Assembly (NCBI RefSeq): GCF_041146345.1
Contig: NW_027191419.1
Location: forward strand, 372,001-436,000
Direction: 5' to 3'
Length of the DNA: 64,000 nt
From: Neodothiora populina
Taxonomy: Eukaryota
How positions within the stretch are numbered: position 1 is the first letter of the stretch; each line of letters begins with the position of its first letter. Both the position numbers and the translations under genes were made by a program. Shown piece after piece: positions 9,313-18,670 of this stretch. The notes under the pieces were generated by a model that was not told where the DNA came from, did no database searches, and saw only the letters and a list, made by a program, of their open reading frames with translations.

Positions 9313-11389
9313 TCTTTGCCCTGGCAATCCATATTATCTGCTAGGCGGCGGCGGCGGCTGCGGCTGCGGCTAGCTGGTGCGGTATTTCTTGGTTGGACAT
9401 TTCCGTGGAGCTGGACCTTTACGATTGAAGTCACTCGGTGATCGCGAACCAGACTCTGGTGAAGGCCTTCGCGATGCGTACAATGGGCTCCATTATTTCT
9501 GACAACATACAGTGGTCGTGTCTGAACCACCATTGCAAGCGTCTACTTGTGATGGGCGGGTAAAGGGAAAGGTAGGGCACGATCGAGAATACGCGCCCAA
9601 CAATCTTATCTAGCTCCTCGATTATTGCTTTACACTTTCGTACAGCTCTGAAGCAACGAGGTCTCCCGTTCTGTAATGTTGGAGAAGCCGGTGAACCCGC
9701 GGCTTGAACGGTAAGAGATAGGAGTGGTCGCGGCTATTGCTCGACTGTCCCCAATACGGTAACTCTCGGACGACACCAAAGGCAGGTCGGTCAACAGTCC
9801 ACATACAAAGGTAGTTGTACACACTATTGTTTGACCTTGGTGGCAGGCCTCGCCAGGAAGCAATATCCATCGTAAATGAATACCCCGACTCACGCGCAAC
9901 AGCTAAGTACGGTGAGACTAGTCAAGCCAGCCGAGTCACGGCGAACAAATCCCGAGTAATGTCTTGGGTTAAACCACGGGGACCATTGTGTCAAAGCGCA
10001 AGATTCCGGGCCGGTCATTTCTTCCTAAGGCGACGACTTGTCTTACGACTTGAGATCCGCCGGTCGACGTGGTCAATAAGGTACGGAGCACATAGACTTT
10101 CCACAAATGTACCCTACCTTTGTAATCCTGACAGCTCTTTTGCCCAAGCGGTCACAGGTCGTTCGGCCGGCCTTTCTTCGTGTAGGAGTACTGTAATTTA
10201 TGTTCAAGGGTCTCAAGTCTTTTTTTATTGCAGCCAGTCCATATAGTCGCCAAGACTCGCGGAGGCGGTAGAACCGGTGAAACTACTGGGTGTTATTCAG
10301 ATTGCCGTGACTTACCACCCCCTCTGACTTAGAACAAGCTACTGTATGTAGGTCATGAGGCATGGGTGTCGGATACACAGACGGTCCAGTACCAAGGTGT
10401 GCAGCTCAGCCCGGACGGTCAAAGGCGTGGGCGGCGACCGGGCCTGAGGGTGGTGCGGAGGCGCAAGGTCCGAACTTCACACGACCCTGGAGCTAAGCAA
10501 GATTACCTTACCCTAACCCGCCATGTGAGAGCGCCAGCACAAGTACCCCTGCTGTGCTTGCTGTGTTCCACGTCTTTGCACAGGCTCACCTGGATGTTGG
10601 CTGGGAAGGAGGATTGGGTAGTGCTGTAAGCATAGCTCGTACAAGAAACTCTGTAGACTGTTGAGGGTTACCCTTAGGGAGACGACGGCGTCGGCAGATC
10701 CCACCCCATCCTCCACGGATGGCAGCGGACAACGTCTGACACGAAACACGACCGTCGAGCAATAGCGATAACGAGTAGAGGATGGCGACAGTCGAGCTTG
10801 TAGCTCGACTACTGATATGATATCGAAAAGAGACACGAGGCTGCGACTGCTGCTGCTATTGCTGCTATTGCTTCACGCCGTTGAAACCATTGTCCCTCGA
10901 ACTTATATTACTCGAACGCAGATCGATTTACATCATTGTCAGATCAAGAGTGGAGAACAAGAAGAGAGCGACGAAACAATGGAGATGCAATGCATTTATG
11001 ATTGCTTTTCCAACTGTATCATGGCAGAGGGTTCGTCCGGGGGCATGTGTGCCTTCAAGGGTGCAAGACAATTGCGGTTGATCGACATCGATCACGGTCC
11101 TGACTTATATAACCGAGCATGGCTCTAAGCGTCAAGGTTAGAGAAATCACACATTTTACCAGCCAATCAATCAGGCCGTGCGTCGTATTCATACACATTT
11201 GTTTTGAAGAAAGGGTATAGGATGGTCGACAGCGGAATAATAGATGATGGGAATAAAACAAACCCATTATTGTTGCCCAGCATCAAGGGAAAGCACAGCA
11301 TCTACCCGTTGGTCATGGCACAAAGGTTTCCCGGTGTAATGGATGGCCCCATAGCGGTGGCATTTAAAAATGGGCACAACGGGCAGAGA
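9313..11389 (+). ncRNA. Candidate large structured non-coding RNA (about 2 kb fold-back; possible telomerase RNA)
   Basis: No credible CDS. More than 12 nested complementary segment pairs, e.g. 9733-9749/10750-10766, 9933-9944/10302-10313, 10047-10058/10208-10219. ACCCTAACCC at 10510-10519. Ends and strand are inferred. Confidence 0.5.
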
Positions 11390-13111
11390 AAGTTCCAGAG
11401 AAGGGTTCCAGAAAGTCGCTAAGTGTGGGAAGGGTCAGGGAACGCTGCACGCAGCCGGTGCTTCCCCGGTATGGAGCATAAGATGACTTGCGATCTGCCC
11501 AGCCACCAAATCGACGGTGCAGCACAAGGTTCCGTCTTGGATTGCGCAGAGCGTCGGCGAAGATCTTTGATGTGATGTGATGGGATTGGGGAAACAAGAG
11601 AGATGGACGAGAGAGGGGCCCCAGAGCTGGAGAAGAAAGGAGTAGAGGAGTTCGGAAAATGGACAGGTCGGAAGCGTACAGTGCAATATGCGCACATAGT
11701 CAGGGAAAGTCGAGTTACGTTATTCGTCGATCAAGCGAAAGGAGGCAGACATATGCGAGGGATAATTACTTGTGTTCGTACCGAGCGAGAGCAGCACGTC
11801 TAAACTTCACGACTTTGAAAGTCTCACCTCGGAGTTTTGAGCGCACGGATCCGCGAATTGTGAAGCAAGCACGATTTAGACACCATCCCGGTCCAACTTG
11901 CATGGGAAAGTTGACGCAATGATTGGGATCATTTGCCAAGCCAGCTATGGCAAGACGAGACAGACACGTCAATTGGCTGGAGCACGAGTCCTGATACGAT
12001 TAGCGCCTAAAGAAGGTTTGCCGGTCGAAGCGAAGCCATTGCATATGGGACGGTTGCGAGTGGCGCCCTTCATATTCACGAGGCAATGATTCAAAGGAAC
12101 GCCGCCGGTTGCACGCAACTAACTGACAGCTAAGTAGTGTCAGAATGCTAGGTAGGTCACTGGAATGGTACAAGCCAGGTAAAGCAATGTGCAAGGCGAG
12201 GTGCCATCATTCGAGTCGACGAATAAAGATACATATCTATCGACGAGTATCGCTCGAGAGCTTTCCCTTGTCTTTCCCCCAGACTTTTTCCCGTTGCCCA
12301 TAATCTATCATCCTTTCCTCCAAGGAAAAAAGAACGACCAACCACTCGTTGTTGCCACAGAGCGCAGAACAGATAGTCCCGTAACAGAGCAGAAAGCAAG
12401 CAGAGAAAGCAGCCGTCATTACCTTGACAGAGTTGGCAGACCGCGCTTACAAACGTACCACTTTTTTCCCGTCACTTTGACATATTGTTCCTGAGCGGAT
12501 CTGTCCACTTGCCCACGTCAATCATAATTGCGAGGTTGCCGACTCGAGACATTCGCCGAGGCCCTTGCCCTTGACACTAGACTAGTGACTAATAAAGATA
12601 TCCGCCCTACCGACTACCCTTATTATTCTCCACTTCACCCGCCAACCTGGATTCATCACCAGCATTAGCAGCAGAAGCAGCAGGTGTAGCAGCAGCGAAA
12701 GCAGAAGCGGTAGCTACAGAGACACAGAGAGAAGGCACTTGCACTTCTTCCTCCATCGCATCCTCACCTCCCACACCTTCGCTTGCCTCTTCGCCGTCTG
12801 TATCCAGCAGAGGCAGCAGCAGCAGCAGCAGCGGCAGTCCAGCCAGCAGTCTATATAGCCGTCCTACGGTCGCCGTCGACTCTGAAATCTACCACTCACA
12901 TTTCCGGGAGTGGCGGACTTTCGAGAATAAATTCCCACAGCATCCGCTTGAGCACCAGACAGAAGCCTGCGTGCCTGCGAATCCGTTTCCGTCTTACTCC
13001 ATCGATAATAAGTCCCCATTCGAGCTCGAGGATCTGATCTTCCTGGTCGACGAGGAGCCGAGCGAAGTAGACCAGACCGAATTTCCCAAGAACCGAAATT
13101 TCCCAGCCGCC

Positions 13112-14978
13112 ATGTCTTCCGCGGCGTCACCAATAGACATCGCCACGCCTCGCGCGTCACCCCCAAACCAAACTTCCAACTTGACGACCCAACTCCAAGC
13201 AGCTGGCGCGGGCAGCCGCAGCAATGGCCACCATCACGGTGCTGCTGACCACGATAGTCATCTTTCCCTAAACCCAGCGATGGAGCGACGAGGCAGCGAG
13301 TTTCGCCACGGCTCTCTAGCACCTGGTACTTCTTTCCACTCACGCCCGATCTCCATGCGAGACGCGCAACGACGCGACAGCCAGAACCTGGCTGGTAGCC
13401 TGATGGGAGGAATGAGCTGGGGCGGTCTGTCAGTAGGCAGCTTCATCCGTGACGAGTAAGGCTATTCCTGCATTCGTGACAAGACGTGTTCATCTATTGT
13501 GTCGACAAGACTGACGTCCATTTCTTTTCTTTAGCATTCTCATGGCGGGCACATCACCCTACCAGTTCCAGTCGCCGTCTTTCCACTCGTCTTCTTACCT
13601 CCCGAAGATGGAGGCCAACTTCATGAAAGACTACATCTGCTGCGGTATCACCCTTGACTCTCTCCACGAACTATTACAACATTACGAGGAGGCACACGCC
13701 GGCGTACCCACACAGACCATGGGCCGCACGCCGAAAGACCAACTGAACACGTTCGCCAACGCGCGAAACACCAATGGAGGCACCGCCGCCGCCCTTCTAC
13801 AACAAAACTCCAACCAACAGCAAGCCCCTACATCAAACATGCCCCAATTCAACCACCCTTCAGGCCTCTCTCAGGGCTTGGTGCGTGATCCCCTTCACTC
13901 CGACGCTGACATGGACGATATGGACATGGACATGGATGATTCATCTGCTGCTCCTGCTGTGCAAGATCCTTACCAGAACAACTATCACCCGCAACCCAAC
14001 TTTGGCCGTCAGCAGTCTAGGGCGCCGTCGCTCAACATCGGCATGGCGAGCGCCTTCCAAAACCAACAAGGGTTTGCCGCCGCTGCCAACACCAACGCAA
14101 CATCCACTCCTACCACTCCTCAACCTGGCCAGACTGTCCAGCTCGGTCACAACCCTACCGTGTCCTCTGTCAACACACCGACTTTTGGCCAGACAACCGC
14201 CTCTCGCAATGTCAGCCCGCCCGACTCCGCCGCACCGCATACACCTGGCGAGCTGGATCTGAACTACAACTTTGACACTTCAAACACTGCATTCAATGGA
14301 CAGATGCAACACCCCGACAACTTCGGATTTGGAGATGGCAACGTGGGCAATGGAGACTCTCCCTTGTGCATCGACGACCCTGCGAAACGACTACTGAGCA
14401 AGCAAGGTGGCGGAGGTGGATTTGCCGGCTTCAAGAACGGTCTGGCCGGCAACCATTTTGCCAACAACAGCGAACTGGCCAAGCGCCTCCGCGAACAACA
14501 ACTCATGTCTGGATTCGGCTTCCCTGGTGAGGAGGCTAAGCCGTTCAGATGTCCTGTCATTGGGTGTGAGAAGGCCTACAAGAACCAGAACGGACTCAAG
14601 TACCACAAACAGGTAAGCTAATCTTCTGATCGTCACACTTATGCGATCTCGATACTGATTACATCACAGCACGGTCATCAAAATCAGCAACTCAAAGAAA
14701 ACCCCGACGGCACCTTTTCGATCGTCGATCCCACTACTTCCATACCCTACCCCGGTACCGTCGGCATGGAGAAGGAGAAGCCGTATCGCTGCGAAGTGTG
14801 CGGCAAGAGATACAAGAACCTGAACGGCCTCAAGTATCACCGTCAACATTCGCCTCCTTGCAATCCAGAGCTGAAGCTCAACCCCTCTGCTGTTCCCGGG
14901 GTACCAAACACCTTCCAGGCCAATGTCAATGTTGCCGGTGCAGGTCTATCGATGGGCGTAGAAGGCATGGGCTACTGA
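13112..14978 (+). CDS. SFP1: Sfp1-type split C2H2 zinc-finger transcription factor (ribosome biogenesis, TOR); 2 introns
   Basis: [85 protein letters not shown]. Introns 13456-13534 and 14613-14669. May have a CUG-initiated extension from 12647. Confidence 0.93.

Positions 14979-15625: not shown

Positions 15626-15659
<34 letters not shown>
15626..15659. repeat. (CT)n microsatellite
   Basis: About 17 CT units between the convergent SFP1 and dioxygenase genes. Confidence 0.95.
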
Positions 15660-15661
<2 letters not shown>

Positions 15662-15902: not shown

Positions 15903-17323
15903 TTAGTGATTCTTCTCCACAATCTCCTTTGCAAAAGTCGCAAAGTCGCGCTTCTCGTCTACCATTTCCCATAGATTTGGCTGTTTTCGAGATAAGAGAA
16001 TCGGTTAGTCTTTGGTGCTTTTCTTTGCTTTCCTCGTATAGAGAAGAGTCGGCCCGTAATAGAAACAGAGGAATAAGGCTTTCGCCGGAAGGAGTCTAGA
16101 ATGGTGCGTTTGGGGATATTGGGGAATAGGCAGGATGGTAGTAGTGATGTGGAAATGAGATATTGGACACGTACCTGTGTGAAAACAGCAAGAGTGTTTC
16201 TAGCGATCTTGCCACCACCTCGACCAGGCGCGACTCCCTTGACAAAGTGCGGCACGGCGCGGAACCGGCTTTTGGTGATGACCTCGAGGGCCTCGCCGGT
16301 CTGGAAGGCGAGACAGTCCTTGGGGATGTTGACCTTCGTCACTTTGCCTGAGCGCGAGTGGATATAGAGTCCCGCGCTGGGGTCCGGTGAGCGGTCGAGT
16401 TCAGGCAGGGGCGTTTCGACCCTCGAGAGAGTCTGTGCCTGAGAGGGGGGGTTCTGGGCCTCGTCCACGAACATGGCGGAGGTCAGACCTGTGAGGCAGC
16501 CGTGGTCTAGATGAGTGGCGCACCAGTCGTCCTCGGAAGCAGCGGTGGCGCTGACCCCTTGGTCTTGGGGTGTATCAGCCGATGGGCTGGGGAAGTAATG
16601 CAGGAGTCGAGCCTTGGTGGATATGCTGGTCTTGACGACGCGCTCGAGATAGCCGGTTGGGTAGTCTGGGACATTGCTCGACGCATACCCGTCACATGCT
16701 CTGGCCACCAAGGCAGCTGTGTCGACTATCAGATTGCACAATTGTTGGAAGGTCGTCTCGAAGCCCGGAAGCACGTCTGTACTGGGCCAGACATTTGGTG
16801 CAGTGTACTCGGGAAGGCCAGGATACTTCTCGAGGGCTGTTCGAGCAAAGTCCGCATTGTGTACTGGATTCGCATAGTAGCTGCCTTTCAAGGTGTCATA
16901 GCGGCCGTCCTTGAGGGTTTCCTTGCCACAGGACCATCCGACTAGCCACTTGGACTCTGGCGATTCGAGCTTTACTTTGTTCACGTGGTGAGTTTGATGC
17001 TTATCATTTGAATTTTGATTCGCGTGTTTATATACCCAATTCAGTCGCCGGCAGATTCGCTAGGTATGATGAGTAGGAGAGTAGTCTCTTTCTGAGAGTG
17101 ACAAAATCCGAGGGCAGCCCGCTCACGACGATGATTCCGAGTGAGTCGGGACCAAAAGCCTCCTCTAATTGTGTAGATGTAACACGGCCTAAGGCACAAT
17201 AAGTCTCTCAATATTGTGTTATCATGGAGGGTTGTGGCATAGCTCACCCACTTGCAGATCTTCGAGGCTGACAACCACTGGGGAGGCCACTTCGACGTTG
17301 TTCTCGTTCACTTTAACAGCCAT
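15903..17323 (-). CDS. 2-oxoglutarate/Fe(II)-dependent dioxygenase (IPNS/clavaminate synthase-like fold); 3 introns
   Basis: Spliced EEAFGPDSLGIIVV, GWSCGKE, KGSYYANP, RLLHYFP. HxD...H triad in WCATHLDHGCLT...AVPHFV, then RNTLAVFTQ|P. Last intron 15981-16174. Confidence 0.88.
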
Positions 17324-17590
17324 GTTGTGCTAGGGCTCACAACAGATGATGTGGAAGTTCTATGACAACAGGTAAACTCGAAAACAGCAGGTATAATTTA
17401 GTTTGGATATGCGAATCAATATGATATATGTACTCTTTACCTATCGATTAGAGTCCACCCCGCCGCGTGATACACATAGAATAAGAGACCCCTCTAAAAA
17501 CTGCAAGTGTAAAGCCATTACTATCTCCGTATCATTGAGTTTCGCGGGGCTCCCCGATCTTTCTCCAAACCACCACCCGACCTTCCCATC

Positions 17591-18670
17591 ATGGTCAAGG
17601 CACTTTCCTTCAAGGGCGACAAGAAGGTCAAAAAGCGCAAGCGCACAGCGGTGGACGGCGGAGATCAGGACACCTCGGTATCCAGAACAAACCCGGCAGA
17701 AGAGGGACAGGATGAGGAGTCCTGGGTGTCAGCAGACAAAGAAGAGGACCTCAAGGGACCTGTCCTCTTCGTCTTGCCCACGCAACCAGTGACTTGCCTC
17801 GCTTGTGATGCCAATGGCAAAATATTTGCCAGTCAGATTGAGAACATGATCGAGGACTCGCCTTCGACGGCGGAACCTCATGATGTGCGGCAGGTCTGGA
17901 TCGCAAATCGAGTCGCTGGCACTGATAGCTTCAGCTTTAAAGGTCACCATGGCAAGTATGTCCTGTCGATTTCTCATTACAACTTCACTGCTCTTAAGAA
18001 CTCCATTTGTGTTGTATTCGACTACATGCAAGACTCCTTATCACCCTTTTCGTTCATCCTTGCCCACTTTCATATCCTTCACTTTCATGAACCTCCTCTT
18101 GTTCTTTCAACATGGGCTTGTGCTTCCTCTCTTCCACTTCTTCTTTCGCTTCCAGCGAGAATCAGACATTTGGTTATCGTGGAATGCATCAGCATGTCTT
18201 TCAACAGTGCTGTAACGCGCCCCGACTGACACCCTACGCATAGGTACTTGAGCTGTGACAAGTTTGGCATCCCAAGCGCATCGACAGAAGCTATTTCGCC
18301 CGAAGAGTCCTTTTACTGCTCTCCCAACACCGAGAACATGGCCGGTACGTTCAGCATCCGCACCACGCGCGACAAATACTTTGCAGTCACAGAAGGCTCC
18401 GGCGCACCAGAGATCAGAGCCGATGCCGACGAGATCAGCCCCGACACAGCGTTCCGTCTCCGCATGCAAGCACGTTTCAAGCCTACTCTCAAAGCATCCA
18501 AGGAGGAGCAGGTGAGAGAAAAGATCAGCAGAGCTCAGCTGGAATCCGAGGTCGGCCGTCGTTTGGAAGATGACGAGGTCAAGAAGCTCAAAAAGGCTCG
18601 GAAGGAAGGAACATATCATGAAGCTCTCCTCGACGTCAAGGTCAAGGGCAAGCACGACAAGTTCGCCTGA
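17591..18670 (+). CDS. FRG1: FRG1-like (fascin-like, spliceosome-associated) protein; intron 17956-18243
   Basis: MVKALSFKGDKKVKKRK, EPHDVRQVW, FKGHHGK|YLSCDKFG, RMQARFKP, YHEALLDVKVKGKHDKFA. Confidence 0.9.

Follow-up and report, generated by a model that had tools for sequence, protein, structure and literature searches.

Where does the protein encoded by SFP1 begin in Neodothiora populina, and is the apparent 5' leader of this gene in fact coding? We examined the gene in a window of 64,000 nucleotides (nt) from contig NW_027191419.1; coordinates are positions in this window, on the + strand unless stated. The annotated protein starts at an ATG at 13112, which is preceded by a long open frame. 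A preliminary description of the locus had proposed that this frame is translated from a CUG at 12647 and that two isoforms result. Comparison with relatives lent this proposal strong support in three respects: a weak start is conserved, coding constraint begins at it, and out-of-frame ATGs have been purged downstream of it. On this comparative evidence, the apparent leader is highly likely to be a conserved coding extension with a weak start, from which leaky scanning would yield two Sfp1 isoforms.

Under this reading, a minority of scanning ribosomes would begin at CUG 12647 and make a form of 731 amino acids (aa), and the others would cross the AUG-free stretch and begin at AUG 13112, making a form of 576 aa. 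A single mRNA would then supply a rare long form and a common short one. We consider it very probable that both isoforms are made in vivo from this gene. What selection would retain is a weak first start and not one particular codon: CUG in most Dothideomycete-like and Lecanoromycete-like genes, GUG in two lineages, and a poor-context AUG in Eurotiomycete-like genes.

The open frame upstream of the annotated start

In the frame of ATG 13112, the nearest upstream stops are TAA 12590 and TAA 12593. The frame is open from 12596, with 172 codons before the ATG and the next in-frame stop at 13457, inside intron 1. The last + strand ATG 5' of this stretch, at 12187, is out of frame, and positions 12190 to 13111 lack ATG in all three frames. 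This ATG-to-ATG gap of 925 nt is the longest in the window on either strand, the runners-up being 502 and 485 nt among 1084 ATGs on the + strand and 1069 on the - strand. Calculated after the fact from the base composition of the leader, the chance of 172 open codons is 0.002 and that of 921 nt without ATG is 4e-5.

The CTG at 12647 lies in the context gccaacCTGgat, where -3 is A and +4 is G. The open stretch contains 11 in-frame near-cognate codons; this CTG comes first among them, and no other combines a purine at -3 with G at +4. When the spliced products were computed, the AUG form had a mass of 61.7 kDa and the CUG form 78.2 kDa. Checked on the letters, what had been described beforehand proved accurate regarding the open frame, its lack of + strand ATGs, the optimal context of the CTG, and the 155 aa gained by starting there. 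An acidic-hydrophobic patch said to end the extension is indeed present, although it stops 20 residues before the Met.

The C-terminus of the spliced product is identical to that of the named N. populina record P0001, whose start is ATG 13112. Homologues carry the source names 'transcription factor SFP1' or 'transcriptional regulator of ribosomal biogenesis proteins', and the gene is the single match in its genome. Two C-terminal C2H2 fingers, with Pfam scores below the cut-off, are split by a spacer and encoded in exons 2 and 3. By these similarities, the gene is assigned to the SFP1 family, and its putative role in ribosome biogenesis is taken from database names and yeast papers.

The start codon across lineages

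Relatives were drawn from two sources. Protein searches with exon 1 provided 23 longer proteins, a list of 150 out of 156 representatives, and a list of 120 out of 707. A single scan of metagenome contigs yielded 273 pattern matches, of which 128 were confirmed and the best 80 were used; together with the window, these formed 53 locus clusters. The scan pattern demanded G or N before a conserved GMSWGG, and genera such as Aureobasidium fell outside the sample. The extension was present in 34 of the 53 clusters. Four more were cut by contig ends (L009, L047, L049, and L067), and four Sordariomycete-like and two Leotiomycete-like clusters had a different N-terminus begun by an in-frame AUG. Extension length was greatest in the window (155 aa) and ranged from 88 to 137 aa elsewhere, with a median of 100 aa.

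Many homologue models run 5' of the main Met, and they become alike only at a Leu whose next residues are Asp/Glu/Ala/Gly and then Ser. From that Leu on, Pro-rich, Ser/Thr-Pro, and acidic-hydrophobic blocks are common to them before the Met. The same region is annotated from a Met in named Eurotiomycetes: Aspergillus niger, A. flavus, A. thermomutatus, A. wentii, Monascus, Thermoascus, Rasamsonia, Talaromyces, Paecilomyces, and Penicilliopsis.

We located the start site by protein letters alone, as [LV][DEAG][STP] before the Ser/Thr block, in the 30 clusters without an adjacent ATG. At this site, Leu was encoded by CTG in 22 of 22 clusters and Val by GTG in 8 of 8. The exon 1 background was 29% CTG among Leu codons and 25% GTG among Val codons (17% and 22% before G). 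Six off-site matches to the pattern, told apart from on-site matches by a positional choice of our own, used CTT, CTC, TTA, TTG, CTT, and GTA, and none used CTG or GTG. Five other conserved Leu columns, serving as a control, had CTG in 0/34, 4/26, 7/18, 12/33, and 13/32. Position -3 was A at 28 of the 30 non-AUG sites and G at the other two, and the codon before the start varied among AAG, AAA, AAC, ACC, and ATC (Lys, Asn, Thr, and Ile). An in-frame stop stood 8-134 codons before the site in 28 of these clusters, and the frame reached the contig edge in two. A frame-blind count of A-n-n-near-cognate-G in the 600 nt upstream, made in 51 clusters, gave 21/5/3 by frame for CTG alone and a weaker 41/30/8 when four near-cognate codons were pooled. 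Among near-cognate codons, CUG is generally the most efficient and GUG the next (PMC5666671).

Four further clusters (L025, L028, L042, and L054), three of which were spotted by eye, have an ATG one codon upstream of the site; its position -3 is T, T, T or C, and G is absent from +4. The codon that follows is TTC, ATC, CTC or CTC, which implies that CTG was not kept once AUG took over. The second residue rules out G at +4 in 12/12 named Eurotiomycete long models among those listed. We built a profile from the 29 CTG/GTG extensions other than that of the window. It scored the four ATG-type extensions at 42-86 bits and named Eurotiomycete extensions at 27-60 bits (10/10). Because of these scores of 27-86 bits, we regard ATG-type and CTG/GTG extensions as one element.

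For coarse placement only, we used a quick tree built on the exon 1 protein with the extension left out; it had 130 columns, and 57 of its 127 forks were open. On it, CTG occurred in the Dothideales, a Myriangiales-related clade, and Mycosphaerellales-like, Pleosporales, and Lecanoromycete-like genes, or about 12 lineages by our count. GTG formed two separate groups, and a weak ATG was found mainly in Eurotiomycetes.

A separate candidate lies just upstream. L008, L010, L011, L012, L019, L020, and L037 have an in-frame GTG, whose position -3 is often A, two codons upstream of the CTG, and gene callers begin at it in P0007, P0194, P0219, and P0251. We rejected this GTG as a conserved start, other loci having GCG, GTT, GTA or GCC in its place.

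Coding constraint and the purging of ATGs

Substitutions were counted in frame-blind nucleotide alignments of 12 close pairs of relatives. By codon position (1/2/3), the extension had 127/89/242, exon 1 had 56/46/288, and the 200 nt upstream of the extension had 92/84/88. The bias differed between extension and upstream sequence with a nominal chi-square p of 1e-6. In these relatives, as distinct from the window itself, coding-type selection starts at the start codon, with a third-position excess inside the extension that is absent upstream. The pooled ratio of nonsynonymous to synonymous substitution rates (dN/dS) came to 0.32 for the extension, against 0.13 for exon 1, across 14 pairs of relatives, some of which shared members. 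An alignment of leaders across relatives had been suggested beforehand, and its outcome favors the extension with respect to the open frame, the CTG, and dN/dS. For the 40 codons that precede the site, dN/dS was 0.65, a value discarded as a control because protein-guided alignment of saturated sequence biases it. Indels were multiples of three in 27 of 40 cases in the extension and 24 of 97 upstream, a partly circular comparison given that loci were picked for open frames.

Out-of-frame ATGs were rare in the extensions, at 2 in 10,776 nt against 71 expected at the exon 1 rate. Using NAT instead of NAC before G makes an out-of-frame ATG, and the extensions use NAT at only 2 of 159 such places. 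Where another base follows, NAT accounts for 150 of 466 cases, and in exon 1 for 63 of 138. The main Met was kept in 34 of 34 extension clusters, with a purine at -3 in 29. Purging of out-of-frame ATGs is needed only if ribosomes scan on to the main AUG, which argues for two isoforms and not for a misannotated start. The 70 nt after the start, folded in six loci without a shuffle control, gave -10 to -16 kcal/mol and no shared hairpin.

Counter-evidence and alternative explanations

Several points weigh against a conserved, weakly started extension. Its G at +4 and its Leu or Val are not independent evidence because the search pattern required them, nominal p values overstate because the clusters are kin, and motif patterns were picked after viewing the alignment. 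The two out-of-frame ATGs that persist occur one each in L020 and L062. No extension was recognizable in 9 of 53 clusters, namely three Penicillium-like clusters, one Leotiomycete-like cluster (L058), and one unplaced clade (L050, L055, L061, L065, and L080), so the extension is dispensable in some lineages. The window itself has the most divergent extension of the set, with a score of 0.4 bits, within the shuffle range, when matched to the profile built from the other 29. Neither the [ST]Pxx[ST]P nor the xLFP pattern occurs in it, and MAFFT left its CTG outside the common column, as it did those of L001, L002, L004, L040, and L071. The window extension is linked to the family through three closer relatives known as proteins only, P0024-P0026; in two of these, the model begins at a Met nine residues ahead of the Leu.

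One alternative is that N. populina has a decaying copy of an extension that is genuine in its clade, in which case the open frame and CTG would be a relic of little or no function. The poor profile score, the two lost family motifs, a low-complexity insertion in the window, and independent losses in other lineages all favor decay. However, the frame stays open for 155 codons, insertion included, with an optimal start context and in the longest ATG-free stretch of the window. P0024-P0026 in turn score 12.7-24.2 bits against the family profile. The window extension aligns with theirs at its L-D-S start as well as along the Ser/Thr-Pro block and the acidic patch, and it carries 25-32 inserted residues that they lack. 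None of 1000 shuffles reached the score of any of the three alignments. A profile of P0024-P0026 gave the window extension 26.6 bits, compared with 6.8 for the best shuffle. With the block and the patch held in common so far above shuffles by relatives that themselves match the family profile, we judge a relic quite unlikely.

It is also conceivable that translation of the extension begins in a more 5' exon, whose AUG is brought into frame by splicing; the CTG would then be an internal Leu codon. An ATG at 12145 has a donor-like GTAGGT just behind it, at 12152, which could be joined to the frame at 16 AG sites, the nearest after 12662, and many database models of relatives (789-877 aa) carry such exons, which we call invented. 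The shortest such intron would nonetheless measure 511 nt, compared with 79 and 57 nt for the real ones, and a branch-like site lies within 40 nt in just 1 of the 16 candidates, with an intron of 919 nt. Splicing there would remove the conserved first residues. An AG stands directly 5' of the start codon in just 13 of 30 loci, an internal Leu would be expected neither to be CTG in 22 of 22 clusters nor to swap to GTG, and the models of relatives have no common sequence 5' of the Leu. Evidence on transcripts comes from four of the 80 contigs (L006, L007, L009, and L074), which lack both introns and for that reason are probably mRNA-derived. In L006 and L007, the CTG lies 64 and 189 nt from the 5' end, with an in-frame stop 17 and 40 codons upstream and no ATG in any frame ahead of the CTG. 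In these two, the start would be transcribed and no AUG exon could reach the frame. We therefore hold an upstream exon to be highly improbable. A transcription start downstream of the CTG and an upstream ATG exon were both named beforehand as grounds for giving up the extension, and these two contigs argue against each. Stops or frameshifts in close relatives were named as a further ground, and at a greater distance the nine clusters without the extension go partly that way. Taken as a whole, the preliminary description is partly supported: strongly in its core of a CUG-started extension giving two isoforms, while an isoform ratio set by start-codon stringency, a feedback loop on ribosome biogenesis, and an activating or docking patch stay conjectural.

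Alternatively, the long form might be the main or only functional protein, made at a low level from a weak start, with the downstream AUG being minor. In keeping with this, the first in-frame AUG of the four Sordariomycete-like clusters carries G at -3 and lies 408-555 nt upstream of an internal Met, and Eurotiomycete models are annotated as the long form. But the purging of out-of-frame ATGs between the starts is needed only if the second start must be reached, the main Met is kept in every extension cluster and mostly has a purine at -3, and Penicillium-like genes yield the short form only. The Sordariomycete N-termini also fail to match the extension profile: Sordariomycete-like and Leotiomycete-like N-termini scored at most 1.6 bits in 16 of 17 cases and 10.1 in one, with shuffles reaching 11.4. 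A long form acting alone is very unlikely on this evidence, and two isoforms from a weak first start remain the preferred reading.

Other N-termini among relatives

Sordariomycete-like SFP1 (L066, L068, L070, and L079; P0140, P0166, P0102, P0128, and P0160) has another AUG-started N-terminus, consisting of a Met, a stretch containing Leu and Trp, and a later S-P-rich block. Over the 408-555 nt to the internal Met, these genes have no ATG in any frame. Two isoforms are likely, judging from this layout, in Sordariomycete-like SFP1 too. In the Penicillium-like L018, L029, and L030, a stop lies 4-13 codons before the AUG, and the leaders are still ATG-free for ~580-635 nt. Unlike these, Aspergillus and other Eurotiales retain the AUG-started extension.

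The unplaced clade without the extension has an out-of-frame, poor-context ATG 34-38 nt before the main AUG in L050, L061, L065, and L080, and in its fifth member, L055, that upstream ATG is in frame. The upstream ATG of the first four possibly provides a different leak-based control that replaced the extension. The Pleosporales models P0008-P0011, P0014, P0015, P0185, P0225, and P0236 have mutually unrelated N-termini before the conserved Leu, which are probably invented exons reaching an ATG.

Comparison with known systems

We compared SFP1 with known systems. Among the closest is cpc-1 of Neurospora crassa which, like its Pezizomycotina homologues, has N-terminal extensions initiated at near-cognate codons (PMC5487733). 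Both genes encode fungal transcription factors. In each, a long open frame precedes the main AUG, near-cognate codons are conserved with A at -3 as well as G at +4, and automated annotations include the extension but leave its start unresolved (PMC5487733). SFP1 also has the arrangement by which the cpc-1 type is recognized, a frame continuous with the main open reading frame (ORF), without an in-frame AUG and with a stop on its 5' side. Peculiar to cpc-1 are two AUG-started upstream ORFs (uORFs) and several near-cognate starts that bypass uORF2 (PMC5487733). Near-cognate use in cpc-1 was shown in vitro and supported in vivo (PMC5487733), whereas in SFP1 it is predicted from sequence comparison. 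Peculiar to SFP1 are the AUG-free stretch, the single conserved start, the swaps among CUG, GUG, and poor-context AUG, and several losses.

A second parallel is c-Myc, although Sfp1 with its C2H2 fingers and c-Myc as a bHLH-LZ protein are unrelated. The Myc1 extension has ~15 aa, and the T58/S62 degron of Myc is part of both forms. In SFP1, by contrast, a degron-like ladder is confined to the extension of 88-155 aa. What they would have in common is a regulator of growth and ribosome biogenesis with a minor form from an upstream CUG and a major form from an AUG (PMC5666671; bioRxiv 10.64898/2026.06.01.729300). The CUG form of c-Myc rises on amino-acid stress (PMC5666671; bioRxiv 10.64898/2026.06.01.729300), and Sfp1 phenotypes have been described as similar to those of c-Myc (PMC6411004).

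Fungal isoforms from poor-context upstream AUGs, along with eIF1 and eIF5 genes that regulate themselves through the context of their start codons, likewise combine a weak first start with a stronger in-frame second (Wallace et al. 2020, PMC7049704), which is exactly the layout of Eurotiomycete-like SFP1. The extensions described there mostly direct proteins to mitochondria; in the other cases, the gene encodes a stringency factor (PMC7049704). The SFP1 extension is acidic and rich in Ser, Thr, and Pro, and of a feedback of the eIF1/eIF5 type, the weak-start half of the layout alone is seen in SFP1.

In the literature searched, supplementary tables being outside the search, we found no publication on an N-terminal extension of SFP1. 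The published Sfp1 work that we found deals with questions other than the start codon, and a protein named 'FgSfp1' (PMC11603076) has 287 aa, far shorter than the SFP1 family, with no mention of a start codon in the available part of that paper. Among the matches listed for non-AUG extensions, cpc-1 was the only Pezizomycotina case. The leak mechanism is already known from cpc-1, poor-context AUGs, and c-Myc1, and the SFP1 case is newly added to these.

Possible roles of the extension

The extension is predicted to be disordered. AlphaFold2, run on P0194 with an alignment of 43 rows, gave it no secondary structure and a predicted local distance difference test (pLDDT) score of 38-50, in a model with an overall predicted template modelling (pTM) score of 0.26. 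Pfam had no match in the window extension plus exon 1 or in the extensions of P0194 and P0192, and the ESM Atlas had no usable match to the P0194 extension.

Short patterns were more informative. A ladder of S/T residues four apart, ending in S/T-P, occurs in 32 of 34 extensions including that of the window (shuffle mean 4.8). The central-site pattern of Cdc4/Fbw7, [ST]Pxx[ST], occurs in all 34 (shuffle mean 17), and [ST]Pxx[ST]P in 27 outside the window (shuffle mean 2.6). The acidic-hydrophobic patch pattern is present in 27 of 34, the window included (shuffle mean 0.6). A pattern count on 109 proteins was dropped as evidence for frequent mis-anchoring (39 without a match, 15 without the Pro block).

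Degrons of Fbw7/Cdc4 have a central phosphosite and another at +4, primed for GSK3 (PMC8797792). The likeness consists of an S/T-P with a second S/T at +4, repeated every four residues in a disordered region (PMC8797792). The ladder in SFP1 would have the layout of such a GSK3-primed degron as a match of pattern only, and the window keeps the ladder, not its doubly proline-directed form. It is possible, if somewhat short of an even chance, that the long form is phospho-regulated and separately degraded or switched through this ladder by GSK3 or proline-directed kinases and a Cdc4-type ligase.

Acidic-hydrophobic segments resemble activation or docking segments. Granting two isoforms, the extension might instead be chiefly an acidic activation or partner-docking domain, with the patch as the co-activator or docking site; we put each of these forward tentatively, as rather unlikely. 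The patch, common to most extensions and best kept in the window, lies in a region predicted to be disordered, and yeast Sfp1 co-purifies with Tra1 and NuA4 (PMC13254600). The S/T ladder is nevertheless the more widely kept element, and we prefer a phospho-degron, itself conjectural, to a plain extra activation domain.

A broader idea is that Sfp1 couples ribosome biogenesis to start-codon stringency in filamentous ascomycetes. A change of stringency or elongation on nutrient stress would move initiation to the weak start, and the resulting long form, equipped with a phospho-degron and an activation patch, would affect growth genes differently. Fungi would then have arrived by convergence at an equivalent of the c-Myc1/c-Myc2 switch, its leak tuned by swaps among CUG, GUG, and poor-context AUG. 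We regard both the coupling and the convergence as doubtful.

Other features of the locus

The features of the locus are collected in Table 1. CT elements are common near fungal transcription starts, and GC skew turns negative at ~12200, near the CT-rich tract. Early in exon 2 lies a conserved Cys-Cys...His...His segment (13629-13697, +) that is predicted to form two strands and a helix (pLDDT 83-89 in P0194), a putative third, degenerate zinc-finger-like fold unreported by Pfam.

Table 1. Features of the SFP1 locus and the basis for each
Feature	Position	Strand	Basis
ATG-free stretch in all three frames; probable extent of scanned leader and extension	12190..13111	+	Longest ATG-free gap
CT-rich tract, probable neighborhood of the transcription start (by analogy with the fungal CT element)	12261..12321	+	Sequence
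In-frame TAA closing the frame 17 codons 5' of the CTG	12593..12595	+	Sequence
Near-cognate start site GCCAAC-CTG-GAT, CTG at 12647-12649	12641..12652	+	Aligns with L-D-S start of relatives
155-codon Sfp1 N-terminal extension, Met-free, predicted disordered	12647..13111	+	Homology to P0024-P0026 extensions
Ala/Glu-rich in-frame insertion, ~25-32 codons, limits approximate	12665..12751	+	Alignment; not in closer relatives
Ser/Thr-Pro block, S/T spaced four apart, GSK3-relay-like	12749..12799	+	Pattern; T-P-x-x-T-P form degenerate here
Acidic-hydrophobic patch, EDLIF core	13013..13057	+	Pattern and alignments
Main AUG (GCCGCC-ATG-T) and coding part of exon 1	13112..13455	+	Start of P0001
Intron 1, 79 nt, GTAAGG ... 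TAG	13456..13534	+	Splicing gives 576-aa product
Exon 2, ends in first C-terminal C2H2 finger	13535..14612	+	Frames, Pfam
Intron 2, 57 nt	14613..14669	+	Splicing
Exon 3, second C2H2 finger and stop codon	14670..14978	+	Frames, Pfam

Upstream of SFP1, a stop-to-stop frame of 118 codons with a Leu run (10772-11128, +) has no Pfam match and is probably no gene. A (CT)n microsatellite lies at 15626-15660 (+), ~650 nt past the SFP1 stop codon. Farther downstream, a 2OG-Fe(II) oxygenase-like frame (15959-17059, -; Pfam E 0.023, below the cut-off) stands head to head with an FRG1-like gene (17513-18229, +; PF06229, 29.6 bits).

Significance

Non-AUG extensions with strong phylogenetic support are few, and that of SFP1 spans at least three fungal classes in a central growth regulator. 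The same extension is begun by CUG, GUG or a poor-context AUG, from which we argue that the leak itself is selected. An extension with a weak start would also explain why databases disagree on the N-terminus of SFP1, giving it as short, as long or with invented upstream exons. Tagging, complementation or overexpression from the annotated AUG would miss one isoform. The swaps of start codon between lineages amount to an unusually clean natural experiment.

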